This document shows, in pieces, positions 31,890 through 49,185 of a stretch of 64,000 bases of DNA. The notes beneath the pieces were generated by a model. It was given only the letters and a program-made list of their open reading frames with translations. It was not told the DNA's origin and did not search any database. The position numbers were made by a program, and so were the translations under genes. The stretch lies in assembly GCA_009015555.1 (NCBI GenBank), contig GCA_009015555.1_3613.1; one strand, written 5' to 3'. Position 1 is the stretch's first letter. The number at the start of each line of letters is the position of its first letter. The DNA is from a phage.

Positions 31890-31917
31890 AGTATACCTAC
31901 ATTCCCGTAGAAGTCAA
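31890..31917 (-). promoter_or_regulatory. sigma70-like promoter (TTGACT, 16-nt spacer, TATACT)
   Basis: -35 at 31917..31912 and -10 at 31895..31890 read on minus strand; overlaps stop of upstream gene. Confidence 0.4.
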
Positions 31918-32564
31918 CTTACTTTTGAAATTACCAGTTTTTGAACGTAGCCCTGCAACAGGGCGTAAGTTACACCACCCACATAACTACCGCCGACAGA
32001 GAGTCTCTCTCCGGCACCGAACCAGTTGGGAACAGAAAAGTTCTGAACTTCCCCGCTCACCATATTTCTCACACGGATCTGCCGAGAGTCCGGGTAAGTT
32101 TCGATCCGCAGATTAAAAACTTGGCCCTGATTACCATTGATCGAGCAACGAACATAATTTCCGCTGTTGTCTGTTGGGAACAATTGGTGCCCTCCAACCC
32201 CAACCATGCCATAATGCGCCAGTCCGGCGACGATCCTTGTGACGTAATCGCCAGAACACCACACCATCTGGGTTGCAGAAGGACTAAGGCTTTGGAAAAC
32301 AACCTCAATCACCATAGGATCTGTGGATAGATCCACTGAATACTGAGTTTGGAAATACCCTTGGCCTTGGGCAGGTATGAACTGCATGACCCTTCCAATC
32401 CCTGCAACATCGACTATCCTTGGGCCTGTGCCGACCAAAGAGAAGGTGTGGTTTTCAGACCAGTCCTTCAAAACAGTCTCGCCGAGAGATTGCCGTGTGG
32501 CATCCACGTAGAGAATGGCATCCTCTTTGCGAGATGACTTCCCTATAATCATTATCTCGTTCAT
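31914..32564 (-). CDS. N-tag family paralog E: ConA/LamG-like jelly-roll protein (N-terminus MNEIMIIGKSS)
   Basis: Track ORF 31914..32567 trimmed to ATG; LamG-like pattern; N-terminal motif shared with four other genes. Confidence 0.55.
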   Translation of the reverse strand: MNEIMIIGKSSRKEDAILYVDATRQSLGETVLKDWSENHTFSLVGTGPRIVDVAGIGRVMQFIPAQGQGYFQTQYSVDLSTDPMVIEVVFQSLSPSATQMVWCSGDYVTRIVAGLAHYGMVGVGGHQLFPTDNSGNYVRCSINGNQGQVFNLRIETYPDSRQIRVRNMVSGEVQNFSVPNWFGAGERLSVGGSYVGGVTYALLQGYVQKLVISKVS

Positions 32565-32935
32565 CAATTTCTCCGAGGTTTTAAAACACCTGATTTTGAA
32601 AGAGGGATCTCATCGGCATCTCTGCCTTTCTCTCCATCTTTCCCGTCCTTCCCGGCCTTTCCTGGTTTGCCCTCCGGGCCTGCCGGACCCGCTGGACCTG
32701 GCACATAAACATACTGCGGTTCAGTAAACGCTGCAATAAACAGCAGTATTGCCCAAGCAACACCATTCACCCACAGTGCAGGCCACATTGAAAAGAATAC
32801 CGACAGCGCCAGAATCAACATCGTATTCCGATGTTCTCTCTTGCGGGCCACGAAGTAAGGGACCAGCCAGAACAGTACAAATACCCAGGCCGAGCCTGAG
32901 AACAACGACCACATCACATCGACAAACTCTGTCAT
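32564..32935 (-). CDS. membrane protein with short collagen-like segment
   Basis: 123 aa; three hydrophobic helices then [27 protein letters not shown]. Confidence 0.5.
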   Translation of the reverse strand: MTEFVDVMWSLFSGSAWVFVLFWLVPYFVARKREHRNTMLILALSVFFSMWPALWVNGVAWAILLFIAAFTEPQYVYVPGPAGPAGPEGKPGKAGKDGKDGEKGRDADEIPLSKSGVLKPRRN

Positions 32936-33228
32936 TTGATCAGCCCCTCTTGGATTTTAATTTGGAGGATCTCCGCATCGATCGAGTAGGTATTGCTGGT
33001 TCGGGTGTAATCTGCATCCCGGTATCGACACATCACACCTTTGGCCTCGCCGTCTCGCTGGACCACCCAGCTTGTGTCATAATTGGGTTGGCTCTTACAC
33101 ACCTTGTGTAATGCCACTACCTCGGTCGGCATCAGCGATTTCTTCGACTCATAATGATCTGGTTTCCCGTCATCGAAAGGATTGCATCCCGAAAGCAGGA
33201 GCGCCGTTAATAAAATCAGTTTCTTCAC
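32932..33228 (-). CDS. lipoprotein (signal peptide with lipobox LLSGC)
   Basis: Track ORF 32932..33306; likely GTG start giving MKKLILLTALLLSGC-NPF; preceded by GGGGGTGG. Confidence 0.45.
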   Translation of the reverse strand: MKKLILLTALLLSGCNPFDDGKPDHYESKKSLMPTEVVALHKVCKSQPNYDTSWVVQRDGEAKGVMCRYRDADYTRTSNTYSIDAEILQIKIQEGLIK

Positions 33229-33377
33229 ATCCACCCCCAGTATTTCGAAAGTTCTGTGGAGATCATGATCCCCACGACATAAGTCATTGAGAAAACCACG
33301 GTCCAATACATGAACCGGGTCCCAGCCATCGCTACCATAATGAACAATATAACAAAAGTTTCAGGCGCGATCAACAT
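33225..33377 (-). CDS. small membrane protein (50 aa, 2 TM), not in ORF track
   Basis: ATG 1 nt after upstream stop; hydrophobic MLIAPETFVILFIMVAMAG...; stop overlaps lipoprotein start. Confidence 0.35.
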   Translation of the reverse strand: MLIAPETFVILFIMVAMAGTRFMYWTVVFSMTYVVGIMISTELSKYWGWM

Positions 33378-33790
33378 TTTGTTGCTCCCTTGCGACGTTT
33401 ATCTTCATCTTCAATAGCCTCGTCTTCTGCCCGGGCCAAGATCTGATAGATTGTCTCTGGATTGTCGAGGAACTCTGTATACTTCTTGATCCTCACTGCC
33501 AACTTGCCACGGATCTTACGCTCCTGCATCTGCTGGTTCTGCATGAAACCACGCTGGTACAGGATGAAATAGTATACCTGCTTTGCTCGATTACGATCGC
33601 AACCCAGTGCATGGGCGAAGTCATTGAAGCAGTCGCTGTCGTGTTTGACCATGAAAATGTCCCAGAACACCTCACGCGCTTTTGCAAGCTCCTCGGGAGT
33701 CACTTTTGGGAACTCCGGGTCGCCATAGCGTGGATGCTTTTTGCCAGCCCACTCGGGTTTTGCCGGATAAACTTTTCTTGTATTGCTCAT
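33371..33790 (-). CDS. hypothetical protein
   Basis: Track ORF 33371..33805 starts at TTG; ATG at 33790 has GAGGAG upstream. Confidence 0.5.
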   Translation of the reverse strand: MSNTRKVYPAKPEWAGKKHPRYGDPEFPKVTPEELAKAREVFWDIFMVKHDSDCFNDFAHALGCDRNRAKQVYYFILYQRGFMQNQQMQERKIRGKLAVRIKKYTEFLDNPETIYQILARAEDEAIEDEDKRRKGATKC

Positions 33791-33828
33791 TTCATCACTC
33801 CTCAAGGTAAAACGTTATTCCACAGGAT

Positions 33829-33844
33829 GGGGGCCGAAGCCCCC
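33829..33844 (-). promoter_or_regulatory. GC hairpin with UUCG loop (GGGGGCUUCGGCCCCC), no U-tract
   Basis: Perfect stem in intergenic region after gene 33857..34549. Confidence 0.4.
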
Positions 33845-33856
33845 GATATTACTTAC

Positions 33857-34549
33857 TTAATCACAGGACGAGGAACTTGAACCGCTGTCATACGAACTGG
33901 AGTCGTAAGAACTGCTGGAAGAAGAACCATAGCTCGAACTGCTGTAGCTGTCGTCAGAAGACGAGTAGCTTGAACTGTACGTTGAGGTCGCAGAGGAACT
34001 GCGGCACTCTTCCACCGGGGCAGGCTGCGCCGCCGGGGTGTCGTCACTCAGGATCGCTCCGGCTGCATAGCCGTACATCGCCGCGTTTACGGGATCAATA
34101 CCGTGAGAAACGACATGACCACCTGTGCTGTGCGGGGTATCGTCAAGACGTCGGCTTGGGGCCGGAGAACCGGACATCTTAGCCTGCTTGATGAACTGAC
34201 GCTTCGCCTTCGGCGGTAGAGTCTTACCCTTCGCATACGCTGGCAGTTCCACACCTTTAAGCTGCTCGTTCAGAGGCTTTGGTGGGGTCTTTTCCACCGG
34301 GGCCTCACGAACAGTCTGGCGAGTTTCTACTGTCACCACGCGCTTGGTGTTTTCTGCTACATTTGCACTTACCAAGACTTGGTTCTTTTCCAGAGGCTCG
34401 TCCAGCGGACGGGTTTCAGCCTTGGTAAAGCGTACCTGACTTACGGTCTGGGCCTGAGATTGTTTGGCGATATACTCGTCAACCTTTGCGTCTTCGATCT
34501 TCGCCGGGGCGAACAGGGCTTTGATCCACGCCACAAATTTCTTGATCAT
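33857..34549 (-). CDS. hypothetical protein with Ser/Tyr-rich low-complexity C-terminal tail
   Basis: 230 aa; RBS AGGAGA; C-terminus SSSATSTYSSSYSSSDDSYSSSSYGSSSSSSYDSSSYDSGSSSSSCD. Confidence 0.55.
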   Translation of the reverse strand: MIKKFVAWIKALFAPAKIEDAKVDEYIAKQSQAQTVSQVRFTKAETRPLDEPLEKNQVLVSANVAENTKRVVTVETRQTVREAPVEKTPPKPLNEQLKGVELPAYAKGKTLPPKAKRQFIKQAKMSGSPAPSRRLDDTPHSTGGHVVSHGIDPVNAAMYGYAAGAILSDDTPAAQPAPVEECRSSSATSTYSSSYSSSDDSYSSSSYGSSSSSSYDSSSYDSGSSSSSCD

Positions 34550-34761
34550 ACTTTCTCTCCTTTCTCGTTGAGAACAGTTAGGTAATTGGTGCCCAGCAAG
34601 CCAGCGGAGATCAGATCATCAATACCCGCCTGCCCGGTAAGGCCGTCTTCGAAACAATCCTTCAGATTGTCGTTGTTGAGCATCCAGTTATTGGCGGCTT
34701 CCTCTGAAGTAAACAGAACGCCCTCCTGACCAACATCCCATTCGCAGAAAATCTCAAACAT
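34546..34761 (-). CDS. hypothetical acidic protein
   Basis: 71-aa ORF with RBS GAGGAGGAAG; stop overlaps next start. Confidence 0.5.
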   Translation of the reverse strand: MFEIFCEWDVGQEGVLFTSEEAANNWMLNNDNLKDCFEDGLTGQAGIDDLISAGLLGTNYLTVLNEKGEKV

Positions 34762-34762
34762 C

Positions 34763-35092
34763 TCACTTCCTCCTCTTATTGTAAACTTCCCTCGCCCATT
34801 TCACAGCCGCTTCAAGTACGTCTCCGTGACATGGGTGGGGATGACAAAAGCATACCAGATCTTTACCTTCCAAATCAAGAAGATCTTCAATGGTAATTTT
34901 CCCGGTACGAATCTGTTCCCACAACCAAACACGGTAGCGTTCGATAGTGGCCCCTCTCGGCTCGTCTTTCGACAGCTTGAAGGGGTTTGCAAACTTAGAC
35001 TGCTGTAGCCCGAAGTGGGGCATCCTGCGTCCTATGTATACAGCATTATCCGGGATTACTTTACTCAGGTGGTAAAAGTTAAGGACCGCCAT
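34763..35092 (-). CDS. DUF4326-like protein
   Basis: 109 aa; N-terminal YIGRRMP...SKFANPF and C-terminal CFCHPHPCHGD Cys/His cluster resemble DUF4326 family as I recall it. Confidence 0.4.
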   Translation of the reverse strand: MAVLNFYHLSKVIPDNAVYIGRRMPHFGLQQSKFANPFKLSKDEPRGATIERYRVWLWEQIRTGKITIEDLLDLEGKDLVCFCHPHPCHGDVLEAAVKWAREVYNKRRK

Positions 35093-35382
35093 TATCGGTC
35101 GGCCTTTAACTTCTTGTCAACCTCCGCCACCATACGGTTCAGTTCAGCCATTTCTTCGTCCAGCTTCTTGTTGATAGGTTTCCCAAACAACCAGAATTTA
35201 TCCTTCGCAAAGTCCACCTTGTCGGCTGTCCACTGGCAAAGGTCTTCCAACTTTCCCGCCAGGAAACTGCCAAAGGCAGCGAGCAGGCTGAACGGAATCA
35301 GTACCGCACGATGTGGGTTAAGCACAATGAGCGCCGTCAGCAGAAGAATGACTTTAGCAAACTTCGACAATACCTTCAACAT
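35092..35382 (-). CDS. membrane protein
   Basis: Track ORF 35092..35403; ATG 35382 with GGAG; hydrophobic N-terminal half. Confidence 0.45.
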   Translation of the reverse strand: MLKVLSKFAKVILLLTALIVLNPHRAVLIPFSLLAAFGSFLAGKLEDLCQWTADKVDFAKDKFWLFGKPINKKLDEEMAELNRMVAEVDKKLKADR

Positions 35383-35383
35383 T

Positions 35384-35617
35384 TTATCGCTCCAAAAGTT
35401 CAACAGCTTGATTCACCAACGCTTGCAGTTTGAGAAGGCCCGCTTTGTCGAGGAGTATGATATCGCAGCCTTCATCATCCCCTCCTTGGTTCAACCCGAA
35501 AGATGAGGATGTTTTGCACACCCACACTTCGGTTTCCCCACCAAGATCCCCGCCATCAATTTTGGCATGGTAGGTCTCAAACTCCGGACGGATACTTGGG
35601 TCAAGTACCAGCTTCAT
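35384..35617 (-). CDS. hypothetical protein
   Basis: 77-aa ORF; start overlaps upstream stop. Confidence 0.5.
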   Translation of the reverse strand: MKLVLDPSIRPEFETYHAKIDGGDLGGETEVWVCKTSSSFGLNQGGDDEGCDIILLDKAGLLKLQALVNQAVELLER

Positions 35618-36018
35618 CAGTTCCCCTCCAAACGAACATGTGGGTCAGCAAGATCATCCAACCCGTAATCCCAGAGGTCCATCCCGAAGTGACGAACGCC
35701 ATCCTCTGGCTCGTAGCCCGGTCGGGTGCATGGAGACACCCAAATACCTTCGACATTTGCTTCGATAAGCCCCTCGACACCAATACGGCTGTATGTCAGA
35801 TAAGGGACCAACACCGGGTCTTTTTCGCCGCAGCCGCAGTCACAGACCCATGCTTTTCCTTCCCCGATATACGGAAGTTTCTCTGCCGGGATGAAATTTA
35901 ACTGTGCCAGAGGGAATCTTTGGATCATCGCCGCCTGGTAGTCCGGGCCTACCAACCCGGATACGAAAGCATTGACTTCTTCAGATTGCTTCTCAACGAG
36001 TTCGCCGTTATTTAGCAT
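35617..36018 (-). CDS. hypothetical protein with CDCGCG motif
   Basis: 133-aa ORF with RBS AAGGAG. Confidence 0.5.
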   Translation of the reverse strand: MLNNGELVEKQSEEVNAFVSGLVGPDYQAAMIQRFPLAQLNFIPAEKLPYIGEGKAWVCDCGCGEKDPVLVPYLTYSRIGVEGLIEANVEGIWVSPCTRPGYEPEDGVRHFGMDLWDYGLDDLADPHVRLEGN

Positions 36019-36355
36019 CCAAAAGCTCCTTCTTGGTTTTGATTTCCTGATTAACTTTCACGTAAACATCCTTGGCGATCGGCTTGTAACAGCGGTTGTC
36101 AGAGAAGATGTACCCGGCCTGTTTGGCTTCGTACTTCTCACACGTTGCATAGTGACGCTTGTAATCACCGTAGTCCATACGAATGACCAGGGGAGACAAG
36201 ATGAACCCCCAAAAAATAACCCCAACCCCCACACCTGCCAGTTTATATTTCCATGACTCACCGAGGCCCTGTACAAATCCAAAAAGTGCGCCTGCAATCA
36301 CGAACACCAGGATAACTTCAGCGTTTTGCATCAAAAACTCAAAGAAACCAATCAT
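36008..36355 (-). CDS. membrane protein
   Basis: 115 aa; two or three hydrophobic helices; RBS AAGGAGAAG. Confidence 0.5.
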   Translation of the reverse strand: MIGFFEFLMQNAEVILVFVIAGALFGFVQGLGESWKYKLAGVGVGVIFWGFILSPLVIRMDYGDYKRHYATCEKYEAKQAGYIFSDNRCYKPIAKDVYVKVNQEIKTKKELLDAK

Positions 36356-36365
36356 CTACTTCTCC

Positions 36366-36587
36366 TTAAAAATCAAACTGTTTAGTTAACTTTTTCATCG
36401 TGCCCTGATAAGACGGGTGTAGTTTGTAATTACACCCCTTCTCAACACACCAATCCGAAGCGGGGTTACGAAGCGCCACCAAACCACACCAGGCGCAGAC
36501 TTGCTTGCCTGCGTGTTTGTCCAGATAGAAGTGGTGACGCTCATAATGGTACTCTTCTTTCTGGCCCTTGTCTACCTTTTTCACCAT
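36366..36587 (-). CDS. small zinc-ribbon-like protein
   Basis: 73 aa; CAWCG...C..KGC cysteine pattern; RBS GGAGA. Confidence 0.5.
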   Translation of the reverse strand: MVKKVDKGQKEEYHYERHHFYLDKHAGKQVCAWCGLVALRNPASDWCVEKGCNYKLHPSYQGTMKKLTKQFDF

Positions 36588-37255
36588 CCGAATTTCTCCG
36601 TTGGGAGGTAAACTTGCTGCTGATTACGCAGAACCAGCCGCAGATCTTTTTGTGGCTCAAGATAGTCAGTCTCGGTCACACGAATAAGGTATCGCCAGCC
36701 CGGCGCACGGGCCTGCTGTGCGGTGTGAAGTTCCCACCAGTCCCATTCCACCACCTGCCCATCCGGTGCGTCGTAGGTGTCGAGAAGGCCCTTATTGTCC
36801 ATCTCACAAACCTGACTGGAGATTCCGGCGTACAGGTTCGGGAGGTTCTCCGTCACGAGGTTGATGTTTCGTGAGGCAATGAACTTCGTCGGGCAATCTC
36901 CGCCGACAACCAGCAGGTGGTAACGAGGTGAGTCGGAACCGATCTGCATGTGGATGTGCGGAGCGCCGGAGGCCGGAGACAGAGACTTCCCGCCACGAGG
37001 AACGCCGTCCGTGTGCCAACCAGGGATCGCAGGGATCATACCCGGCATTAGCATGTGGGTCTTCACGTCAACCACGATATGCTTTTTGTCGCCACGGATG
37101 TTCATCGCTTGCAGGGCGGCGCGGGTCACGTCCCCACCGAAGCGGAAAGCATCATCGAACGATGCGTTCCACAGGCCCTGTGTGTTCTTGATGTCGTCCT
37201 GAGACGGCTTCTCGATCTTATTGCCAAACTGTACTTCGCCACGGTTAAATTTCAT
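36581..37255 (-). CDS. Fe(II)/2-oxoglutarate dioxygenase-like protein
   Basis: 224 aa; PGWHTDG motif resembling the HxD iron-binding dyad of TauD-type dioxygenases, with downstream histidines; call from motif only. Confidence 0.35.
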   Translation of the reverse strand: MKFNRGEVQFGNKIEKPSQDDIKNTQGLWNASFDDAFRFGGDVTRAALQAMNIRGDKKHIVVDVKTHMLMPGMIPAIPGWHTDGVPRGGKSLSPASGAPHIHMQIGSDSPRYHLLVVGGDCPTKFIASRNINLVTENLPNLYAGISSQVCEMDNKGLLDTYDAPDGQVVEWDWWELHTAQQARAPGWRYLIRVTETDYLEPQKDLRLVLRNQQQVYLPTEKFGW

Positions 37256-37264
37256 TTCGTCACC

Positions 37265-37513
37265 TCATTGATATTGGGCTTTCCAGGTAATTCGTCCGGT
37301 CTTGCATACAAACTTGTCTTCAACAACCAAGCCGCTGAAGGCACCGTCCGGGGCGTTGACCACGGAGTTGACCATCCGCTGCTCCCCAGTCTTTACACAT
37401 CCGTCCTTGAAGTCTTGGTATTCCTGCATCAGGTAACCAACGAGACCAAGTATAATCAAACCGCCGATGAAAGTAAACCACAATTTGAACCAAAAGTTAC
37501 TATTTTTACGCAT
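37265..37513 (-). CDS. small membrane protein
   Basis: Track ORF 37265..37567 trimmed to ATG 37513; one TM helix (FWFKLWFTFIGGLIILGLVGYL). Confidence 0.45.
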   Translation of the reverse strand: MRKNSNFWFKLWFTFIGGLIILGLVGYLMQEYQDFKDGCVKTGEQRMVNSVVNAPDGAFSGLVVEDKFVCKTGRITWKAQYQ

Positions 37514-37742
37514 CCGAACCCCCGAAGATCTTGTACGCCTTGCTGTAATCAATGTGCCCTTCCACAACGTGAGTCTCTTTCTTCAGGCACTTGCAGCAGA
37601 TCCGGTACACATTCGTCTGCTTCGACTCCGGGACAACGTATGCCGGAGTGTCGTGGTGCCGAGTGACGTGCAGGTTCTGGGTTATTTCCCAAGTGTGGTC
37701 GCAGGTACGCTCTTTCTTTCTCTTTTTGCTGAACCAACCCAT
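37506..37742 (-). CDS. small zinc-finger protein
   Basis: 78 aa; CDH...CCKC pattern; RBS GGGGGTG. Confidence 0.5.
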   Translation of the reverse strand: MGWFSKKRKKERTCDHTWEITQNLHVTRHHDTPAYVVPESKQTNVYRICCKCLKKETHVVEGHIDYSKAYKIFGGSDA

Positions 37743-37743
37743 C

Positions 37744-38427: not shown

Positions 38428-38432
38428 TAATC

Positions 38433-38892: not shown

Positions 38893-40902
38893 TTAAAAAA
38901 TCACTTTCAGTGTGCGGGTGAATGCACCAGTCACTTTCACCGTCAGTTCGTTGCGCTGGGTATCAGAGAAGCCCAGGCCAGACAGTTGTTCGTCAGAGGC
39001 CGGAACCTTCATCTTACCTGCCAGATGCTCGAACACTTTACGGTGCTCGTTCAGTTCGTTACGCAGATACTCGTTGTAGAAACCGCGAGTAGTGCCCGGC
39101 TGTTTTGCGCCTTCCAGCATGAAGAAGTAATGCTTGTTACCAATCGCCTGACCGTCCCAGTGGTTCGGAGAGTTCATGATTACAGACACCTTCTGGAACT
39201 GCTCGGTAGCCATTCCCCACACATCTTTAGACTGCTTGCTGTGTGGCAGTGATTCAATGACCTCCACGCCACCTTTACGGGTGTAACGGAAGGTGATTAC
39301 ATCAACATCGCTACCGCGAGACATCGCCTGTGGACGACTAAACTCCAGCGTTGTATTGCCATGCTCCAGTTCAAGAGTGAAGCCAACACGGTCACGAGAA
39401 CGAACATTGTACTGGTTCACCCACACCTTATAAATACCTTCTTCGATCTGACTCTCGCGTTCGAAGATGATGTTCTCAACAGGGTTCAGATCATCATGCT
39501 TATCCATGCCGTTCATATCCAGGTCCAGATACGCACCGCCACCACGACGATTACCGTAATACAGGTGCTCACCGCGAGGGGTACGCATATGCAGGTCAAG
39601 GTCATCGCCATTGTTCCACGCCAGAGAGATACGCAGGGCACCCTCCACTTTACCACCCGCTGCTTTCACACGCTCTTTAATAGAGTCAGTAACTTCACCA
39701 TTGTAAGACCAGGAGAAGTTGTTGTCCCACTTCAGCATGTTCGGAGCGTCCGGATATACCGGGGCCACCAGAGACACCAGGTTGCCAGTGTGGCGGTTCT
39801 CAACCAGCGCTTCGATGCTTGTTGCCGTCGGCAGAACTTCACGGATGAATTTCTCGATGGAGATCTCTTCCACGTTAGCCGGGCCTTTAACAGGCTTCTT
39901 CGCCCCTTTCAGCAGGTCACCGAACACATCTGTGGCCTTCTGGGTGTTGCGGTCAGCAAACAGCACGTTGTTAACGGTCAGGTCTTCCAGTACAGCGTAG
40001 CGGCGAGGCAGAGAGTCCATCAGACCCAGTTGCTGAACCTTCTCCTGTGCTTTCTTGATCATCGCTTCGGTAACCAGCGCAGTCGGGCGCTTGTAGTTTG
40101 CCGGGGCCATAACCTTTTCCCAGCGCTTAACCGCAGATTCGATATCCATACCGCCGGACAGATCTTCCAGCAGGTTGCCGATCGCAGTATTACGGAACTT
40201 ACCGCGCTCACCCAGCTTCAGGCCGTTTGTCCACACGAACGCTTCTTTACCTGCGGTATCCAGAGCATCGTATTTGTTCTTCAGGTCGAGGAACAGGTTG
40301 ACGCTGGCGATCTGCTCGTTACCACGGTACAGGGAACCCTGTGCGTTCAGTTCGATGATCGTTTCTGCTGCGTCGGCAGTCAGTTCAATCAGGCTACGCT
40401 CCAGAACCTGCACGTTGCTACGAGAGCGGCTCAGGGCAGTTGCGATATCTGAGTTTGGCTTCACGAAGTTCTGCGGCAGAACGGCGTGGAAGTGGTTATA
40501 CGTCACGACCTGATCGTTTTCCAGAACGTTGCTTTGTGCCGTACCCACCTTAGTGGTGAAGTGCAGGAACTCGTCAGCGATCGGTGCTGCATGGATCAGC
40601 TTGGACAGCGAGTCAACCACCGCCTGGTAGTAACCCGGCACCTTGATGTCCCAGATGGAGACACGCTTACCGTCAACGAAGGTCACCACACGACCAACAT
40701 CACGGATGAATTGCTTACAGCAGTTGCAGTCGTACTCACGGCGCTCACGGAACATCAGGTTGGTGCCCGCCGGGAATGAATCGAGATAATGGTTCCACAC
40801 GACGTCTTTGTCAGCAGCCACTTCAAACAGGCCAGTTTTAGCCATCTTGGTCAGTTGTTTCTGGATAGCCAGTACGAAGTTATGATAGTTGTTAGTGCTC
40901 AT
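38893..40902 (-). CDS. large conserved hypothetical protein (669 aa)
   Basis: Long ORF with RBS GAGGAG; bounded by a promoter-terminator unit downstream; no catalytic motif recognised. Confidence 0.6.
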   Translation of the reverse strand: MSTNNYHNFVLAIQKQLTKMAKTGLFEVAADKDVVWNHYLDSFPAGTNLMFRERREYDCNCCKQFIRDVGRVVTFVDGKRVSIWDIKVPGYYQAVVDSLSKLIHAAPIADEFLHFTTKVGTAQSNVLENDQVVTYNHFHAVLPQNFVKPNSDIATALSRSRSNVQVLERSLIELTADAAETIIELNAQGSLYRGNEQIASVNLFLDLKNKYDALDTAGKEAFVWTNGLKLGERGKFRNTAIGNLLEDLSGGMDIESAVKRWEKVMAPANYKRPTALVTEAMIKKAQEKVQQLGLMDSLPRRYAVLEDLTVNNVLFADRNTQKATDVFGDLLKGAKKPVKGPANVEEISIEKFIREVLPTATSIEALVENRHTGNLVSLVAPVYPDAPNMLKWDNNFSWSYNGEVTDSIKERVKAAGGKVEGALRISLAWNNGDDLDLHMRTPRGEHLYYGNRRGGGAYLDLDMNGMDKHDDLNPVENIIFERESQIEEGIYKVWVNQYNVRSRDRVGFTLELEHGNTTLEFSRPQAMSRGSDVDVITFRYTRKGGVEVIESLPHSKQSKDVWGMATEQFQKVSVIMNSPNHWDGQAIGNKHYFFMLEGAKQPGTTRGFYNEYLRNELNEHRKVFEHLAGKMKVPASDEQLSGLGFSDTQRNELTVKVTGAFTRTLKVIF

Positions 40903-42104: not shown

Positions 42105-42131
42105 TAATAAAAAACCGCCCCGAAGGGCGGT
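42105..42131 (-). terminator. rho-independent terminator
   Basis: ACCGCCC-TTCG-GGGCGGT stem followed by TTTTTATTA on minus strand. Confidence 0.55.
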
Positions 42132-42757
42132 TATCTTTTCTTGGTTTCAATCTTGATTGAGCGCATCAAGCACCGGGAATGATACAGAGCTTGGTCTTGA
42201 GAACCGCCGATCATGAGATTAAAACTTGTCCCGTCTGCAAGATCTGGGATGGCTTTGTTGTTTATCGTTGGCGATCCATCAACAGTTACAGTGAGGCTCT
42301 TGTTAATAGACTCGAAGATTATCTCGTGATAAACACCTTTTGTCACGGCGGGGCCTGCATTGACCCTGCTGGAATTATACCACCAGTCAAGGTATCCGTT
42401 ACTCAGCATGTTGGCGATCCAAGTGCCAGACCCGTTTCCTTGAATAGATCTCCCCACAAATATCATTGGGTTTGTTGCCGCTGCCTTAACCTTCAGATTC
42501 ATGGTGATCTTCCAGTCATTGTTTAGCAGCTTGTCTGGGGTGGTCCCTCCGCTCAATGCCCCATCTCCAACAAAATCCATCGCTGGCAGGCCCTCGTCGA
42601 GAACCGTCGCGGATGTTCCGGCGGTCCTGTTGAACGTTATCCCGCGATCAGTGAATCCTGAGAATGTGCCCAAGGGATACTTGGTGAAGTCCAACTCGAA
42701 CCAAGTGCTGTACTTTTTCGGATCTCCGCCCCCCGGCAGTACCAACATCTCTTGCAT
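42131..42757 (-). CDS. N-tag family paralog B: ConA/LamG-like jelly-roll protein (N-terminus MQEMLVLPGGG)
   Basis: 208-aa ORF with RBS GGGGG; LamG-like pattern; shared N-terminal motif. Confidence 0.55.
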   Translation of the reverse strand: MQEMLVLPGGGDPKKYSTWFELDFTKYPLGTFSGFTDRGITFNRTAGTSATVLDEGLPAMDFVGDGALSGGTTPDKLLNNDWKITMNLKVKAAATNPMIFVGRSIQGNGSGTWIANMLSNGYLDWWYNSSRVNAGPAVTKGVYHEIIFESINKSLTVTVDGSPTINNKAIPDLADGTSFNLMIGGSQDQALYHSRCLMRSIKIETKKR

Positions 42758-42766: not shown

Positions 42767-42791
42767 TAAAAGAAAAGGGGCCGAAGCCCCC
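42767..42791 (-). terminator. hairpin plus U-tract (GGGGGCUUCGGCCCC then UUUUCUUUU) between polymerase gene and paralog B
   Basis: Perfect stem with UUCG loop followed by T-run on minus strand; lies 5 nt downstream of predicted start site of the motif at 42803-42814. Confidence 0.45.
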
Positions 42792-42831: not shown

Positions 42832-45468
42832 TTAGTGACAATCTCCCCAGCTTGTGCCCGTCAGGTATTCACCTGTGATGTGGACTGGAGATTTCATCAT
42901 CTTAGCCGCCTGCTCCACGCACTTAACGACCATCTGCCCGACCGGGCAATGAATAATCGTGTACACGCCGTTCTCGTCCGGATCACACTTGAACTTACCT
43001 TCTTTCACACAGTGACCATCCAGAACCAGACCTTTCGCCAGGCACTGCTCAACAAAGGCTTTTGCGGTTGCCTCGTCGTTGAACTTCCATTCTTTCTTGA
43101 ACTTGTGCGGCACTTCAAGCTGGTATTCATCGTGGTAGTAGATGATACGGCGGACGCCTTCATCATACCAGCCACGCTTAACCAACTGCCAGTGCAGCAG
43201 GATACCGACCAGATCGAACAGTGCAGCACCGCCGTTCTGCTGGTATGCGTTCAGCAAGGAGTGTTTGGAGCGGGTGTAGATCTTACGACCATCGAGGCCG
43301 TAGATAAAGCGTTTCCCGGTCAACTCCCAGAACTTCTCAAGTGCTTCTTTACGACCTTTCAGACCGATGTTGCTATCCCAGAATGCGTCGATTACCGCCT
43401 GAGCCTTGTCGAGGGAAATACCCAACATGGAGGCGATCTTCGCGGCCTGGGCACCGTACATGATGCCGTATGTCACACCCTTACCTTCACCACGGGAAAC
43501 CTTCTTACCCGCCGCTTTGGTATACGCTTCAGCGTTTCGGCTGTGGGCGTCACCTGATTCCATGATCCGGAGATATGCCCCGCCGTCGAACTCGTAGGCA
43601 CCCCATGCTGCGATCATACCTTCGAGGTTTGAGCCGTCGATACCAACCTGATATTTCCCTTCAGATGCCCGGAATAAGCCACGCATCTCTTTACCCAGTA
43701 AAACCTTCTCGTCTGGTTTAGGGACGTTAGCCACGATTGTGTGCTTACGTCGCCCGGTGTTGGTGATCCCAGAATAACGCGCCGGGAGTTTACCGTCAAT
43801 ACGCAGTCGTGGGTGGTTCAGCCATCCTGTGTCAACCTTGTCTTCCTTGAGCGGGTCAAGTACAGAACGACGGTTACGCAGAGACAGCCACTTCACGATC
43901 TGCTTTGCCATATGACCGTCAACCTTCTCCAAGTTCGGACACAGGCCGCTCATATCTTTCAACTGCGGAGACGTAGGCAGGCCACGGGCCTTACGTCGCA
44001 ACAGCTTGTACATCTTCTCTTTGTCCTGCCACGCCTTCGGGGTGATGCCGAGGTATTCCAGAATAAGATCCCGGTATTCAACTTGGTCCAACTGCTCAAT
44101 GTACTCACGGACAAGCCCATCGACCTCGTTATCGGGGCGTTGTTTCTTAAACTGGTCCTTCGTCACATCCTTACTGCGCCACAGGGTTGGCTTCCAGCCT
44201 GCATCACGGATAAGGAACTTCTTCACGTCATCTTGGTTACCGATACGCATCGGAATCATAATGTCCGGCATGGTTTGGTTCTTCAGATCCAACATTGCCC
44301 GTGCCATGTCCTCTGGTGAGAGAGGGATCAGGGTCGTTTGCTTGTTGTTCTGGTCCCGGATAAACTGCGGCATCGCTGCCTCATCCTCGACACCATGCTC
44401 ATTGCAATACTTGATTGCTGCCGCCGTCAGGCTACCATCGGCCTTGAAAGACTTCGCCGGGGGACCCTTAAAGTCGAGTGCCTCCCAGTTGACATTATAC
44501 CCCAACTTCTCCAGCCACTTCCACCCAGTCCCGGACAAAGATCCATCGCCCTTGAACGGCTTAGAAGGGAAGGTCGGTTGTGCTGACTTCGCCATCTCTT
44601 TCTTCGGGAGATGGGGTTCAACATCTCCCTCGATCTCTCGCATCATTTGATCGATACGGTCACGAAGTTTAAGTGCCGCCTCTTCGTCGAAAGATACGCC
44701 CTGAATCTCCTGCTCAATCATCAGGTAGTCTGTCAGCATACCACGACGCATGGCATTCTTCCAGTTGATCAGCTTGTACTTCTTGGCGTCCTTATCCTTA
44801 TCTTCATCCTTGTACATGAAGCGTTTGTCATCTACCAGCTTGCCGTCGCAGGCGATCTCCTCCATGAGGGCCGTCCACACCATTTCGTTGATGATAACGT
44901 CTTCGATGATACGATCACAATACTTCCACAGCGGCAGGCCACGCCAGTCTTCGATTGCCACTTTCTGGTTGGCAACACGCATACCCCACGCCTCTAAGCC
45001 GTGAGGGCCGACAGGTTTCATCTTCCCGGTGACCGGGTTCTTTACCATCTCCGGACACCCACGAGGAAGCGGTCGGTCTGGATAAAGAGTTCGAGACATT
45101 GACAGAGTGTCGAACAGGTTAACCTGCTTGCCGTTCAGGGTGCCCATGCACTTAGGGTCGCCGAACATATCATACTGTGTTCCCAACATCTTTTTAAACA
45201 GACGAAGGTCGTAGCCGAACAGGTTGTGGATCGCGATGGATTTAGGCTCCGTCTTGAACCAATCGTTCAACTCCTCAAAGGTACGAATTTTGAAATTCTT
45301 GCCCTTCGATTGGATAAATTTCAACGCCTGATCGTACCCTTCCCGGTTGGGGTCGAGGAAGATATTCCAGTTATCGACCTTATACTCCTTGAACAGGATC
45401 ACGTGAAGCTGGTCTACTTCTTCGAGCAGACCATTGGCTTCAGCATCCCCTACAAACAACCCTTTCAT
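42832..45468 (-). CDS. DNA polymerase, family A, with 3'-5' exonuclease domain
   Basis: Track ORF 42832..45495 starts at GTG; ATG at 45468 has AAGGAG; N-terminal exonuclease motif VGDAEANGL; C-terminal KxxxYG..YG region and HDE motif typical of family A polymerases. Confidence 0.85.
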   Translation of the reverse strand: MKGLFVGDAEANGLLEEVDQLHVILFKEYKVDNWNIFLDPNREGYDQALKFIQSKGKNFKIRTFEELNDWFKTEPKSIAIHNLFGYDLRLFKKMLGTQYDMFGDPKCMGTLNGKQVNLFDTLSMSRTLYPDRPLPRGCPEMVKNPVTGKMKPVGPHGLEAWGMRVANQKVAIEDWRGLPLWKYCDRIIEDVIINEMVWTALMEEIACDGKLVDDKRFMYKDEDKDKDAKKYKLINWKNAMRRGMLTDYLMIEQEIQGVSFDEEAALKLRDRIDQMMREIEGDVEPHLPKKEMAKSAQPTFPSKPFKGDGSLSGTGWKWLEKLGYNVNWEALDFKGPPAKSFKADGSLTAAAIKYCNEHGVEDEAAMPQFIRDQNNKQTTLIPLSPEDMARAMLDLKNQTMPDIMIPMRIGNQDDVKKFLIRDAGWKPTLWRSKDVTKDQFKKQRPDNEVDGLVREYIEQLDQVEYRDLILEYLGITPKAWQDKEKMYKLLRRKARGLPTSPQLKDMSGLCPNLEKVDGHMAKQIVKWLSLRNRRSVLDPLKEDKVDTGWLNHPRLRIDGKLPARYSGITNTGRRKHTIVANVPKPDEKVLLGKEMRGLFRASEGKYQVGIDGSNLEGMIAAWGAYEFDGGAYLRIMESGDAHSRNAEAYTKAAGKKVSRGEGKGVTYGIMYGAQAAKIASMLGISLDKAQAVIDAFWDSNIGLKGRKEALEKFWELTGKRFIYGLDGRKIYTRSKHSLLNAYQQNGGAALFDLVGILLHWQLVKRGWYDEGVRRIIYYHDEYQLEVPHKFKKEWKFNDEATAKAFVEQCLAKGLVLDGHCVKEGKFKCDPDENGVYTIIHCPVGQMVVKCVEQAAKMMKSPVHITGEYLTGTSWGDCH

Positions 45469-45557
45469 ACTCTCTCCTTTTTGGCATACCTCCACTCAGG
45501 ATAGCCCAATGCCTCGTAAAGATCAACCTATCAATACCCGTCCTTGGGTGAATAATC

Positions 45558-46274
45558 CTAAAGTTTTTCGAACACGGGCCACCAGATCCCGTTGTTTACC
45601 GTCGTCTGCAAGTAGGTGTTGTCGAACTGCACATACTTAAAGGGGTACGTTGCCGAGTCCGGGTAGTTAGTGTCAAACCTACCACGAATGAATGCCTTGG
45701 TGGTCAGGTTTCCTTTCACCATTGCCCCGCTTCTCGTAGACCCGGTGTAGTTAGGCTTCGTGACCTTCACCGACTCCGGGACAAAAAGATCATGAAAGTT
45801 GATGACCGCCTTTACCTGATCTGACAATGCCCACATATTGGGCACAAAAAGATCGTATTCCTGAACCGGAGTGAAGTCAGGAACATTTATGGTGGCAGAG
45901 GCTCCATAAACATCGTTGGGCACACCTGACATCAAGCGGACCCGGTAGGTATCCTGCCCAATGGTGATCTTTCTGTCCTGTGCTGTTGCTGCCACCCCTG
46001 GTGGGGTTATTCCAACACCGTCACTACCGAATACCGCCCCTTTGAGATAAACAGCCTGGTAATTGTCCCGTCCGATGGGATGGGAGGGGACAATAATGGT
46101 CTTGCCTCCCTTTGTGTAAATGAAATATTTAAAGGAAGCCGCCTTGGCAAGTATATTCGCCGGGGCAAGATCTGCAACAAGGTCAGCGTGTGATATGAAG
46201 GAACCTTCTGAGAGAATCCCTACATACGTAGCCTCCGCGCCGGGCTTAGAGGCAACAATCAACATTTCCTGCAT
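45558..46274 (-). CDS. N-tag family paralog C (N-terminus MQEMLIVASKPG), beta-rich hypothetical
   Basis: 238-aa ORF with RBS GGAGGG; shared N-terminal motif. Confidence 0.55.
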   Translation of the reverse strand: MQEMLIVASKPGAEATYVGILSEGSFISHADLVADLAPANILAKAASFKYFIYTKGGKTIIVPSHPIGRDNYQAVYLKGAVFGSDGVGITPPGVAATAQDRKITIGQDTYRVRLMSGVPNDVYGASATINVPDFTPVQEYDLFVPNMWALSDQVKAVINFHDLFVPESVKVTKPNYTGSTRSGAMVKGNLTTKAFIRGRFDTNYPDSATYPFKYVQFDNTYLQTTVNNGIWWPVFEKL

Positions 46275-46453
46275 CAGCCCTCCAGTTTAACCATGCACGA
46301 ACCGCTTTTCCATTTGCTTACGGTGCCCAGAACTTCGACCTTGGCCTTGTTCCCTTTGATCTGGCGGATGATCCCACCCTGAAGCTCATTGTAGCCCCAA
46401 TAAATAGCCACCTTGTCGCCCTCTTTAAGAGGGGTCCCACGATAATCAGTCAT
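46274..46453 (-). CDS. small hypothetical protein (59 aa), not in ORF track
   Basis: ATG overlapping preceding mini-ORF stop; stop overlaps start of paralog C and supplies its RBS. Confidence 0.3.
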   Translation of the reverse strand: MTDYRGTPLKEGDKVAIYWGYNELQGGIIRQIKGNKAKVEVLGTVSKWKSGSCMVKLEG

Positions 46454-46538
46454 TATGGTTCCTTATGTCCATGATGTACATGACAACACAAAGGAGGCCC
46501 ACGGCCCCCAAGAAAACTAAACCAAACCAATCCGGCAT
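46446..46538 (-). CDS. mini membrane peptide (30 aa), not in ORF track
   Basis: MPDWFGLVFLGAVGLLCVVMYIMD...; start overlaps stop of gene 46538..47005. Confidence 0.2.
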   Translation of the reverse strand: MPDWFGLVFLGAVGLLCVVMYIMDIRNHND

Positions 46539-47005
46539 CAGTCCACCTCAACAGGCTCGATGAAGTAGTTCTGGCCCTTCTTGACTTGCATGAAGGTCCC
46601 CTCTACCCAAGTACCTGAACCTTGAATACGTGTTTCCGAGATGTCATACTTCGTGTTTGGATCACGTTTTCTGTGAAGCAGTTGGAGAATCAACTCCAGA
46701 CTACTGAAGGAGATCTTGTATTCAAATCCCTCTTTGTCTTCAAAGACCGCCACCGCAGAACTCCTTCCTTTCTCTGTGTGAGAAAACTGGAGAGACATCT
46801 TGCGGGTTTCGTGCTCTATCTCTTCTACACGTTTGTTTTCCGAACCGGGCCGGAACATATGAACAAAGTCACAGAGTGGGAATCGGGCAGCATACACCTC
46901 TTCTGCTTTTGGTGTAAAAGCAAATCCCTCCCATCCTGTGAACCACTTCCCGCCTGACCCGGCTTCCGCCAAGGCAGGGTATGAACGTTTACGAAGTTTT
47001 CCCAT
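46538..47005 (-). CDS. hypothetical protein
   Basis: Track ORF 46538..47008 (GTG) trimmed to ATG 47005; RBS GGGAGG. Confidence 0.5.
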   Translation of the reverse strand: MGKLRKRSYPALAEAGSGGKWFTGWEGFAFTPKAEEVYAARFPLCDFVHMFRPGSENKRVEEIEHETRKMSLQFSHTEKGRSSAVAVFEDKEGFEYKISFSSLELILQLLHRKRDPNTKYDISETRIQGSGTWVEGTFMQVKKGQNYFIEPVEVD

Positions 47006-47958
47006 CACAAACCTCCCGGTAATTTGTATTGATAGATCGTCTTCGAACTATAACCAGATAGCCAGAAGAACAAGTCGCCCACCCTTAAACATGGGCAGTG
47101 GAACTGGTTTGTTGGGACAGAAGCTGTTGTTTTACTACCTGTCAAGATATCGAACTGGTTAAGTACCGTACTGCTTTGTTGGACTGTATATATAACCCCT
47201 TTCCATACGCAAGACGGCATATCATAAGGGGTAAATCCCGGGCTTGTAACTTGTACTGTTGAGATCTGAAGGTTTGTCAAATCCACACGGAGGACATCCA
47301 GATATGGAGAGCCGTCACCCTCGCTTGTGTTCTTTATTGAACCCCCTCCGGTTATATAAACAAACCCGCCCATCAAAGTGGCGTCCCCACCAGACACCCC
47401 GTGAGAAAAAGCACCGGAAAGAACTACGTCTTCCCAAGCCAAGCCATCTATCCGGCACCTGCGGATTGCATTGGATGAAAACCCGGTGGACTTGTAGACA
47501 TTGGCAATAGAGTACACGTAATCGTCATCTACGTAAATAGCTCCATAATCATAAGGCAAGGCGGGATAAGTTTTGTACACACCCGTCTCCAAGTTCAGGG
47601 ATTCGATTACCCCTGTCTTTGTCCTGCCTTGTCCGAAGTAAAGAACTCCCTTATGGAGATAACTGGCGGTATTCAACGGTATGGTTCTTCCAGCCACACC
47701 AGGGACCATACCTGAGTATGCCATGTCGCTCACATTGAAGGTGTGCAAACCATCTGCTTTCAGGACATAGATTTTTCCATTCCAATACCCGATCGCGACG
47801 GCTGCTGTGCTGGTAGGAGAAGAGCCTCCCAAAGTTCCACCACGGGATTGGCCCGGCATCATGGCGGCTGATGCCGACACTAATGCCTCGTCAGCATTAA
47901 CGTCATCCATGTCCACAGGCACCCCTTTCTTCCCTCCTGCCATTAATAACTCGATCAT
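47005..47958 (-). CDS. N-tag family paralog D: Kelch-like beta-propeller protein (N-terminus MIELLMAGGKKG)
   Basis: 317 aa; RBS GGAGGA; repeated G.IY..GG-type blades; shared N-terminal motif. Confidence 0.55.
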   Translation of the reverse strand: MIELLMAGGKKGVPVDMDDVNADEALVSASAAMMPGQSRGGTLGGSSPTSTAAVAIGYWNGKIYVLKADGLHTFNVSDMAYSGMVPGVAGRTIPLNTASYLHKGVLYFGQGRTKTGVIESLNLETGVYKTYPALPYDYGAIYVDDDYVYSIANVYKSTGFSSNAIRRCRIDGLAWEDVVLSGAFSHGVSGGDATLMGGFVYITGGGSIKNTSEGDGSPYLDVLRVDLTNLQISTVQVTSPGFTPYDMPSCVWKGVIYTVQQSSTVLNQFDILTGSKTTASVPTNQFHCPCLRVGDLFFWLSGYSSKTIYQYKLPGGL

Positions 47959-48149
47959 TATTCCTCCACCAACTCGCCCGCGCCGTTGTACCGAGTGTTC
48001 CAGTCCCTCAGCACGGAATCGTACCCGTACTCAGATCTCTTTTCTGCCCCGCACCAGCCGCAGGTTATTACGTGCCTGTCTTGATAATGGGTATCTTCCC
48101 AGTAATCAGGTTGCTTACCACAGAAAGGGCATGGTTTAATATCAGTCAT
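47958..48149 (-). CDS. Lar-family-like restriction-alleviation zinc-ribbon protein
   Basis: Track ORF 47958..48182 trimmed to ATG 48149 (RBS GGAG); MTDIKPCPFCG...CGWCG resembles the Lar-family CPFCG signature. Confidence 0.4.
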   Translation of the reverse strand: MTDIKPCPFCGKQPDYWEDTHYQDRHVITCGWCGAEKRSEYGYDSVLRDWNTRYNGAGELVEE

Positions 48150-48516
48150 CGGACCACTCCTTGTCGTACCCGGCATCTTCACGGGTCATAGCGATATGCG
48201 GGGCATCGCACCCGTCATACCAGTTATCGACAAACATTTTCTCGGACCCTTCTACGATGAACAGGCCCGCCTGCCGTAATTCCTCTTGCAGGTTGCCAAA
48301 CATATTATCGTTCTGGTCGAAGATCACCAGGCCTGCATCATACGACGGTCCGTCTTCATGACGGTAAACGACCATATCACCACTGTAAGTGATCTTCAGC
48401 TTGGAATCGATCTCGTCAAGCCTGTCGGAAACCTCTTGCCAAGAATCCGTGTGCAGATTGCCCAGCGGAGGGTCTAACAGTGCAATGACGCCCACGGTTA
48501 CACGTTGCTCGCTCAT
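48142..48516 (-). CDS. hypothetical acidic protein
   Basis: 124-aa ORF with RBS GAGAGGAG. Confidence 0.5.
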   Translation of the reverse strand: MSEQRVTVGVIALLDPPLGNLHTDSWQEVSDRLDEIDSKLKITYSGDMVVYRHEDGPSYDAGLVIFDQNDNMFGNLQEELRQAGLFIVEGSEKMFVDNWYDGCDAPHIAMTREDAGYDKEWSDD

Positions 48517-48531
48517 GAATACTCCTCTCTA

Positions 48532-49185
48532 TTAATCAAGAACAAATGGTGCCGTCGGCACTGAGAAATTACCGTCGTAACGGGCCACCTTGCTGATACG
48601 GAATTGGTCAAGCCCACCAAACATAGTTTGTTCGCCGAAGCCGATTCTTGCAAAACGGCTTACGTCACTCCACCCTCCGGAAGCAAAGGACGTGGTGGTT
48701 GGTGCCACTTTACCGTTCAGATATAACTTCGTGACTCCCCCTTTGCTCACAATAGCCACATGTGTCCAGTTGGAAAGAGGCCAGTAGTTGGTACTAAAGC
48801 TCAAATAATTCTTCTGGTCCTGAAGATAAACCACACTTTGGTAAACCTTGAGGCAACTCTGAGTACCTGTCCCAAAATACATCCACCAGGAAGAGGCAAC
48901 TGAAGAGTTTCTTGACCAAAATTCGATAGTGAACTCGTCCTCTGGTTTGAAGACGAGATCTGTTTTCTCTGTCGCCATCATCTCAAAATAGCTGGCAGTG
49001 TTAGTACAGTCAAAGTATTTGTTGTTGAATTTTCCGTAACTTCCGGTGCCTACTGTTGCTACTTTTGAAAATTGCCGGGTAGGCTTGGCAACATCAATAC
49101 CTCCCTTGTCTGCTTGCAGGAGAAGGAGAGTTTTATCTCCCTTCATGCCGCCGCCTGCACCAGCCGCCAATAGGATTTCCTGCAC
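48532..49185 (-). CDS. N-tag family paralog A: ConA/LamG-like jelly-roll protein (N-terminus MQEILLAAGAGGG)
   Basis: 217 aa; GTG start with AAGGAG; LamG-type pattern (W.HVAIV...LYLNGK...DQFRISKVARY). Confidence 0.6.
   Translation of the reverse strand: MQEILLAAGAGGGMKGDKTLLLLQADKGGIDVAKPTRQFSKVATVGTGSYGKFNNKYFDCTNTASYFEMMATEKTDLVFKPEDEFTIEFWSRNSSVASSWWMYFGTGTQSCLKVYQSVVYLQDQKNYLSFSTNYWPLSNWTHVAIVSKGGVTKLYLNGKVAPTTTSFASGGWSDVSRFARIGFGEQTMFGGLDQFRISKVARYDGNFSVPTAPFVLD

Follow-up and report, generated by a model that had tools for sequence, protein, structure and literature searches.

A seven-residue N-terminal tag shared by five dispersed genes for lectin-like and propeller-like proteins of a CR3/CR8-like phage: a putative docking peptide for virion accessory modules

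The 64,000-nucleotide stretch of phage DNA analyzed here (NCBI GenBank assembly GCA_009015555.1, contig GCA_009015555.1_3613.1; its whole length is referred to as the window) contains five genes, named A to E below, whose products start with a common peptide of seven residues (hereafter, the tag). The region shares 97% identity with Cronobacter phages CR3 and CR8, which assigns the phage, by sequence similarity, to the genus Certrevirus of the subfamily Vequintavirinae (CR3/CR8-like; rV5-like myoviruses of ~150 kb). Positions 1–30 kb, on the plus strand, are occupied by the head, neck, tail, baseplate, and fibre module, which is collinear with that of Pectobacterium phage phiTE, for which a virion structure from cryo-electron microscopy (cryo-EM) is available; the phiTE virion proteins are 85–99% identical to those of the window (99% for the major capsid protein, 95% for the sheath, 96–99% for the baseplate proteins). 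From ~30 kb on, the genes lie on the minus strand and include those for DNA polymerase, primase/helicase, helicase, and methylase, and the GC skew switches sign at ~30 kb, at the same place as the strand change. Genes A–E, putative early genes, lie on this replication-gene strand, scattered among replication genes and away from the virion module, in agreement with the original prediction, which had been made from the sequence of the window.

All five open reading frames (ORFs) were confirmed on the minus strand with the N-termini first reported for them, namely, MQEILLAAGAGGG in A, MIELLMAGGKKG in B, MQEMLIVASKPG in C, MQEMLVLPGGG in D, and MNEIMIIGKSS in E. The core of the tag reads M-x-E-[ILM]-[LM]-[LIVM]-x, that is, Met1, a large residue at position 2, Glu3, and three hydrophobic residues; the information content drops after position 6–7, into a variable linker rich in Gly, Lys, and Pro. 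Hence, the seven-residue core of the consensus originally proposed stands, while its last element, x-G at position 11, holds for two of the five proteins only. We searched all six frames of the 64 kb for the relaxed pattern ^M.E[ILMV][LMIV][LIVMA][LIVAMG] at every ATG, GTG, and TTG start of ORFs of at least 40 residues, and retrieved A–E with zero spurious ORFs. According to a null model, in which 93 approximate genes had their first 40 residues shuffled 20,000 times, 0.034 matches per window are expected by chance versus five observed (Poisson P(≥5) ~4e-10).

The tag is conserved as a peptide and not at the nucleotide level, as had been claimed, since the codons differ between its copies (GAA/GAG for Glu; CTA/TTG/TTA for Leu); A and C have identical GCAGGAAAT at codons 1–4. 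An all-against-all BLASTP comparison of A–E revealed no similarity of the bodies past the first ~7 residues. Methionine aminopeptidase needs a small residue at position 2 in order to remove the initial Met, and such a residue is found at this position in none of 49 tags; thus, Met1 should be retained, and the free N-terminus may belong to the recognized epitope.

All five bodies are probably ligand-binding folds, the propeller of B being a sub-threshold assignment. Gene A (48532–49185, minus strand; 217 residues, GTG start) encodes the tag MQEILLA (nucleotides 49165–49185), a Gly-rich linker, and a Laminin_G_3/ConA-like jelly roll, the Pfam match to Laminin_G_3 (E=1.6e-10, 41.8 bits) being above the gathering cut-off of this family, 27.6 bits. 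Orthologues of A retaining the tag are present in KaOmega (MQEILLAAGASGG), PCH45 (MLETILSRKAGGG; 42% identity), PVP-SE1 ((V)KELLLVGG, from an upstream GTG), and pEa_SNUABM_48 (MLETLLVVPQ). In gene B (47005–47958, minus strand; 317 residues), the tag MIELLMA (nucleotides 47938–47958) and a GGKKG linker precede what is probably, judging by sequence matches, a Kelch-type beta-propeller. Pfam Kelch families are found in B below threshold (E=0.004 and 0.022), and in its homologue gp51 from the Erwinia jumbo phage Bosolaphorus, with E=4.5e-5, also below the gathering score; a two-sequence profile gave no significant link of B to other tagged propellers.

Gene C (45558–46274, minus strand; 238 residues) combines the tag MQEMLIV (nucleotides 46254–46274) and a variable linker with a body that has fold-level similarity to CLec-fold proteins of the Mtd/TvpA/FGE class. 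The AlphaFold2 (AF2) model of C (predicted local distance difference test score, pLDDT, 92) predicts an alpha/beta structure with the C-type-lectin-like fold of the Mtd/TvpA class. Neither a reverse transcriptase nor a template repeat was noticed near C, and the window ORFs read include no evident reverse transcriptase, no dedicated search for diversity-generating retroelements (DGRs) having been made.

Gene D (42131–42757, minus strand; 208 residues) encodes the tag MQEMLVL (nucleotides 42737–42757), a PGGG linker, and a jelly roll matching Laminin_G_3 above the cut-off (E=1.7e-6, 28.7 bits); its orthologues are confined to some Certreviruses and Salmonella phage KE22. The label "major tail protein" given to D in RefSeq/PHROG is unsubstantiated. 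One terminator-like hairpin (GGGGGCTTCGGCCCCT followed by TTTCTTTT; 42776–42791, minus strand) is situated between the stop codon of the DNA polymerase gene and the start of D, and another one (AACCGCCCTTCGGGGCGGTT followed by TTTTATT; 42113–42132, minus strand) at the stop codon of D, so that D appears to be an insulated cassette. The upstream T-tract is separated from the start codon of D by ~18 nucleotides, and since the gene is enclosed by two strong hairpins, it would be expressed via read-through or from a promoter of an unrecognized type.

Gene E (31914–32564, minus strand; 216 residues) starts with the tag MNEIMII (nucleotides 32544–32564), followed by a linker and a ConA-like beta-sandwich. 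The start is the ATG at 32564; the TTG one codon upstream would yield MMNE. E has no Pfam match, and its assignment as ConA-like comes from a moderate-confidence AF2 model of a beta-sandwich (pLDDT 62, predicted template modelling score 0.68), for which Foldseek returned legume lectins and ConA-like domains of NTNH/BoNT (118 matches at E≤1e-3). When E was compared with phiTE_203, a tagged protein of phiTE, or with A using hhalign, little was aligned past the tag region, and hence the three were handled as separate families. Directly upstream of E, at 32564–32935 (minus strand), lies a gene for a 123-residue protein with membrane-helix-like segments and a short collagen-like stretch; its stop codon overlaps the ATG of E by one nucleotide, which suggests translational coupling. 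Overall, the folds named in the original prediction held for the three jelly rolls and, below threshold, for Kelch-like B, while the protein described there as beta-rich and unassigned, C, is predicted to be alpha/beta and C-type-lectin-like.

The tag is a module independent of the bodies and is conserved both inside families and between distant phages. In the model of C, residues 1–11 have pLDDT below 50 and no secondary structure. In the alignments of the C family (MQEML/MFELL/MEEML) and the E family (MNEIM/MQEIL/MNEML, with invariant Met1 and Glu3), the tag is kept and the following ~10 residues are variable. B and gp51 of Bosolaphorus are only 22% identical overall, yet share five out of six tag residues, the tag of gp51, MLELLML, starting at an internal Met; similarly, CR8 gp038, an allele occupying the slot of E and 33% identical to it, keeps MQELLTVGGG. 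Retention of the shared N-terminus in relatives, which the original prediction had proposed to check, is thus observed down to a body identity of 22%.

The position of the tag can be compared with that of other N-terminal modules in the C family, for which an exhaustive HMMER search with C yielded 80 cluster representatives at 50% identity. The N-termini of ~35 of them are tagged (consensus close to MLEMLL with a G/K-rich continuation), 18 have an FN3-like domain of ~95 residues in place of the tag, and six are of the Mtd_N type (Pfam Mtd_N, 9.7e-6, just under the cut-off), Mtd_N being the domain at the N-terminus of Mtd, a tail-fibre receptor-binding protein. The C-type body itself, with the consensus ...YxGxV...FIxGxxLAxxxGLTxG...WxKF...GKxLxVP...YRVRL...WRPVLEL, remained unmatched by Pfam in C and six family members, of which two had only an accessory Mtd_N or Laminin_G_3 match. 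Such bodies are also found in larger architectures: a 1,257-residue protein consisting of the tag, a Kelch propeller, and four C-type bodies, in this order; a 1,563-residue protein with C-type bodies and LamG; and tandem copies in proteins of 700–2,200 residues. As far as sequence comparison can tell, the tag is positionally equivalent to fibre-type N-terminal modules in the C-type family.

The window-type tag recurs in at least seven lineages of jumbo phages, where it is attached to bodies of the same types. A direct check confirmed window-type tags in PhiEaH1, Agricanvirus, pEa_SNUABM_48, and Ralstonia FLC1-1B, in an adjacent pair of LamG and C-type genes of Psa21, and, from the upstream GTG, in PVP-SE1. 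The nucleus-forming Serratia phage PCH45 has two tagged genes; Burkholderia SURPRISE13 has, between the genes for thymidylate kinase and DNA polymerase, a tagged ConA-like protein and an unannotated C-type ORF; and a metagenomic contig has two tagged genes behind one for a giant GH19-containing protein. The tag is thus conserved across phages differing in host and GC content.

The same bodies occur under a different tag in Mimasvirus. In Xanthomonas jumbo phage XbC2 (OP292654.1, 357194–367543), 11 consecutive genes, XbC2_581–591, alone on their strand and at the end of the record, start with MLPFPQLVQYGN or a close variant, their bodies being kelch-like, C-type (annotated "structural protein"), E-type ConA-like, RCC1 propeller, LamG, and others; many pairs within this array are alike only over the first 12–25 residues. 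Homology between XbC2_589 and C begins at residue 17 and runs to the C-terminus (E=1e-20); that between XbC2_587, which starts with MLPFPQL, and E begins at residue 14 and likewise reaches the C-terminus (E=9e-24, 32% identity). The first 13–16 residues are unrelated in both pairs. The homologue of A in GAP32, like XbC2 a Mimasvirus, starts with MLPFARII. Shared bodies with lineage-specific peptides would be expected if the peptide has to fit a phage-specific partner, and this swap means that neither common descent of whole proteins nor a generic N-terminal bias can explain the tag. Papers on XbC2, XacN1, and Goslar, and comparisons of jumbo phages, do not mention the tag.

Several records deviate from these tags in their annotation. 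Gene 10 of PVP-SE1 is annotated from an internal Met, the upstream GTG giving (M)KELLLVGG; the annotated start of Bosolaphorus gp51 lies 17 codons upstream and masks the tag; and the C-type ORF of SURPRISE13, of 228 residues, situated between the ConA-like gene and the DNA polymerase gene, is missing from the annotation. Judging by the sequences, the tag probably exposes annotation errors in these three phages.

Two tag-bearing proteins of sister phages are virion components according to published mass spectrometry (MS) data. Electrospray ionization tandem MS of purified virions of the Certrevirus CB7 identified 26 proteins, including CB7_55 (26.5 kDa, 4 peptides, 24% coverage), to which the authors drew attention because, alone among the virion proteins, it has its gene away from the structural region, in the replication region, and for which they reported homologues in Erwinia jumbo phages only (PMC7344957). 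C is the orthologue of this protein (82% identity). Among the virion proteins of phiTE left without an assignment, only the "Pagoda" candidate is more abundant than pTE203 (PMC11972413). The entire phiTE genome lacks A–E at the syntenic sites and contains a single genuinely tagged gene, phiTE_203, whose product starts with MNELLLIG and weakly matches LamG. More generally, phiTE, CB7, KaOmega, CR8, and the window phage have differing subsets of tagged genes and a nearly identical virion chassis, which, together with the location of D between terminators, points to the tagged genes being exchangeable cargo.

The proposal that the shared N-terminus is a targeting or docking tag is upheld as regards a separable tag on unrelated folds, and among the roles suggested for it virion incorporation or docking is the best supported, given the two MS detections in sister phages. 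The third role, export, does not agree with the N-termini, which have no basic n-region, too short a hydrophobic stretch, and no cleavage site. The original statement that no described system is known to match the arrangement is not supported, as validated docking peptides do exist in phages K1-5/K1E/SP6, KP34-like phages, and KP32 (PMC6872550, PMC13352976). In these systems, conserved N-terminal peptides dock secondary receptor-binding proteins (RBPs) onto the primary RBP or an adaptor (Latka et al., 2019, PMC6872550; Latka et al., 2026, PMC13352976). The peptides are 7–29 residues long and differ between phage groups: a hepta- and an undecapeptide in K1-5/K1E/SP6, "MALxxLV" in KP34-like phages, and the first 29 residues of gp38 in KP32, with further conserved-peptide groups represented by Menlow and PhiK64-1/RaK2 (PMC6872550, PMC13352976). 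In KP32, deletion of the peptide abolishes incorporation of RBP2, fusion of the peptide to a foreign endosialidase puts this enzyme on the virion, and contacts of the peptide are predicted for Leu2, Asp3, Phe5, and Asn6 (PMC13352976).

We therefore favour, as rather more probable than its alternatives taken together, the reading of the tag as a docking peptide through which accessory binding modules are attached to the virion. The seven N-terminal residues, with the retained Met1, invariant Glu3, and three hydrophobic residues, and the flexible G/K/P linker would form a plug. Through it, small ligand-binding modules that can replace one another would be fixed at a conserved site of the assembled particle, most likely on a fibre, where their accessory role may be in adhesion or receptor binding. 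The genes would be variable cargo at differing sites of a conserved genome, the tag making their products compatible with the virion. By analogy with KP32, KP34, and K1-5, we infer that the attachment is mediated by the tag itself; all five products would be incorporated, and their location would be external.

Several observations weigh against this reading. Genes for tail components are not usually found among replication genes, where A–E lie, and the precedents have trimeric tailspikes, which these bodies are not. MS support covers CB7_55 and phiTE_203 only, A, B, D, and their orthologues having never been reported in virions, and the homologues of B in jumbo phages, as well as the LamG partner in Psa21, are annotated merely as hypothetical; PSA21_90 carries the annotation label "virion structural protein." pTE203 was left unplaced in the phiTE cryo-EM maps (PMC11972413). 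The partner in the precedents is a T4gp10-like branching domain, and none was detected in the structural proteins of the window: phmmer and BLASTP searches with T4 gp10 against 31 proteins of the structural module gave the best E of 0.15, such searches being insensitive and the published cases having needed HHpred, and PHROGs, Pfam, and NCBIfam assigned only generic fibre/baseplate labels to the structural proteins. Finally, all features save the fibre-type relatives of the bodies also fit targeting of the proteins into the capsid.

This alternative follows phage T4, where the internal proteins IPI, IPII, and IPIII, and Alt bear an N-terminal capsid-targeting sequence (CTS) of ~10 residues that is removed by the prohead protease at L/I-x-E; their genes are dispersed over early regions and differ greatly from one relative to another, and the cargo, which consists of small basic proteins or enzymes, is located inside the head. 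The tag would then bind the prohead scaffold or core, and the tagged proteins would be packaged in the head and injected with DNA as effectors. The likeness is considerable, comprising a short N-terminal peptide common to unrelated proteins found in virions, dispersed loci outside the structural module, presence variable between close relatives, and proteins that are MS-positive yet unseen in symmetrized cryo-EM. The T4 CTS, MKTYQEFIAE, contains QEFIA, which resembles QEMLV, and in the C family [GS]-[AV]-E at about residues 14–17 (D in one member) resembles phiKZ-type cleavage sites; moreover, the annotation of CB7 includes a T4-like "prohead core protein protease" (PMC7344957). However, no cleavage motif (L/I-x-E or S/A/G-x-E) is conserved across the five proteins or the families, and the cargo differs, being composed of extracellular-type binding folds, whose relatives have N-termini of the fibre type (Mtd_N, FN3) or are giant proteins of 700–1,500 residues with several lectin domains. 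LamG domains of phages are found in fibres, baseplates, and on virion surfaces (PMC7824862), with matches to cyanophage baseplate and structural proteins, and folded propellers and jelly rolls would be unlikely cargo for passage through the tail tube. Taking all this into account, we consider packaging into the head unlikely, though the foremost among the alternatives.

A slightly less probable option is that the tag directs the proteins to another phage-specific, non-virion partner, such as an assembly chaperone or a host-surface or cell-envelope complex, with the action occurring in the cell or in lysis debris, e.g., as receptor masking. It conforms to the location of genes among replication genes, to MS support for two body families only, and to the lack of structural annotation for the B-type and some LamG-type homologues in jumbo phages whose annotation may have drawn on proteomes. 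At the same time, A–E have no signal peptide, lipobox, or transmembrane segment and hence no route to the cell surface, and both the two proteomic detections in purified virions and the positional equivalence of the tag with fibre N-terminal modules speak for the virion.

The last explanation, that the tag has no function of its own and is either an N-terminal remnant in divergent paralogues or a nucleotide-level signal of translation initiation, could appeal to the ConA-like fold in three out of five proteins and to the four identical codons of A and C, but is highly improbable, as the folds differ (jelly roll, C-type lectin, probable propeller) and the tag is kept across hosts and GC contents, the remnant being rejected by the tag swap between lineages, in which homologous Mimasvirus bodies bear an entirely different shared peptide that descent cannot explain, and the initiation signal by the differing codon usage.

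If the tag is a docking peptide, its socket may be sought among the structural proteins. Solved virions contain no homologue of any of the A–E bodies, and when ORFs around the tagged genes in five distant loci were compared by BLASTP with the window and phiTE as a search for a partner among neighbours, only C-type bodies matched. A candidate is the fibre gene at 2938–6264 (plus strand), located between head/capsid and neck genes and encoding a collagen-repeat, fibritin-like protein of 1108 residues, a homologue of phiTE_215/CB7_10; phiTE_215 is the unmodelled "third fibre" of phiTE. The protein has a strong match to Pfam Collagen (5.5e-32), a weak one to Fibritin_C, and four blocks of collagen repeats, followed by two tandem foldon-like motifs at about residues 961–1010 and a distal domain of ~100 residues; its matches in PDB are foldon tags. 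From these sequence features, it looks like a collagenous whisker of the fibritin type.

Strong homologues of the C-terminal 267 residues of this fibre (E≤1e-25) are present in 107 out of 50,697 phage records, which cover nearly every lineage with the verified window-type tag: Certrevirus, Seunavirus, Agricanvirus, PCH45, PhiEaH1, pEa_SNUABM_48, SURPRISE13, and the FLC group. In PhiEaH1, the fibre gene ends ~2 kb upstream of the C-type array, and E. coli rV5-like phages have a partial fibre match and no homologues of A–E; in the short distant loci, the fibre domain gave no match, a result that carries no information. Such co-occurrence could also stem from shared phage ancestry; the distal domain is a tentative candidate for the socket, suggested by co-occurrence and less likely than not to be the right one. 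A still bolder and rather improbable generalization would be a portable plug-and-socket system extending from Vequintavirinae to nucleus-forming and other jumbo phages, in which a plug of 6–7 residues fits a post-foldon socket of the whisker, and changeable monomeric lectins (ConA/LamG, Kelch/RCC1, Mtd-like) form a combinatorial array scanning glycans or surfaces, Mimasvirus having re-invented the plug (MLPFPQLVQYGN) for its own socket.

Other genes of the window deserve mention. In the structural module, a 103-residue ORF at 6958–7269 (plus strand) is a homologue of the phiTE "Pagoda" protein pTE217 (164 residues), with 71% identity over a part of it; in phiTE, this protein sits at the hexamer centre. 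It is followed, in another frame, by a gene for a 456-residue collagen-repeat protein (7313–8683, plus strand), which has no counterpart at this place in phiTE. On the minus strand, the 230-residue protein encoded at 33857–34549 is 86% identical to phiTE_004 and has a C-terminal tail extremely rich in Ser, Tyr, and Asp (...SSSATSTYSSSYSSSDDSYSSSSYGSSSSSSYDSSSYDSGSSSSSCD), and the 669-residue protein encoded at 38893–40902, in the replication region, is conserved in CR8 and KaOmega and has no Pfam match.

Should the docking reading be correct, it would account for orphan virion proteins that are encoded outside structural modules and unplaced by cryo-EM (CB7_55, pTE203), and would reveal a hidden layer of host recognition or adhesion in large myoviruses. 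Annotation would have missed this layer: the tagged genes lie among replication genes and are labelled "hypothetical," and mis-called starts in some records cut off the tag. Docking by conserved peptides, a principle of tailspikes in Klebsiella and coli podophages, would then also apply to small lectin modules in many jumbo lineages, and a seven-residue tag mounting arbitrary binding domains on the virion would be of direct use in phage engineering and display. The C-type body, in turn, represents a large family unmatched by Pfam, with three alternative N-terminal attachment modules. The interest of the system rests on its breadth, the evidence from tag swap, the unusual cargo and gene placement, and the practical value of a mounting tag.

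Two known groups of phage proteins can be compared with the tagged ones in part. With Bordetella phage BPP-1 Mtd and the DGR variable proteins TvpA and TaqVP, C shares less than 12% sequence identity, and it has no Mtd N-terminal or intermediate domains, the tag being in their place. A motif of ~50 N-terminal residues is common to RaK2 gp526/gp529 and the tailspikes TSP1 and TSP3 of ViI-like phages (PMC3622015); the window system is similar in having a conserved N-terminus on several proteins of one phage as the proposed attachment element, whereas the RaK2/ViI-like element is a folded domain of ~50 residues on large tailspike RBPs, as opposed to seven residues on small lectin modules here.

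The closest parallel is provided by the conserved-peptide systems of KP32, KP34, K1-5, and SP6. Here as there, an extreme N-terminal peptide is common to several proteins with otherwise unrelated sequences, and this peptide is specific to a phage group, hydrophobic, as short as seven residues, and portable as a module; the start of KP32 gp38, M-L-D-x-F-N, is very similar to M-L-E-x-L-L of the present tag. The differences concern the cargo and the genes: trimeric beta-helical depolymerases or tailspikes, usually one to four proteins encoded in the RBP cluster, in K1-5, SP6, KP32, and KP34, versus lectin-type cargo of 208–317 residues encoded by genes dispersed among replication genes or, in XbC2, arranged in an 11-gene array. 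Hence, the window system is not a member of the conserved-peptide systems as defined and is read as the same kind of device, the new part of which would be the extension of the principle to small lectin modules, to dispersed genes, and from Vequintavirinae to at least seven jumbo lineages.

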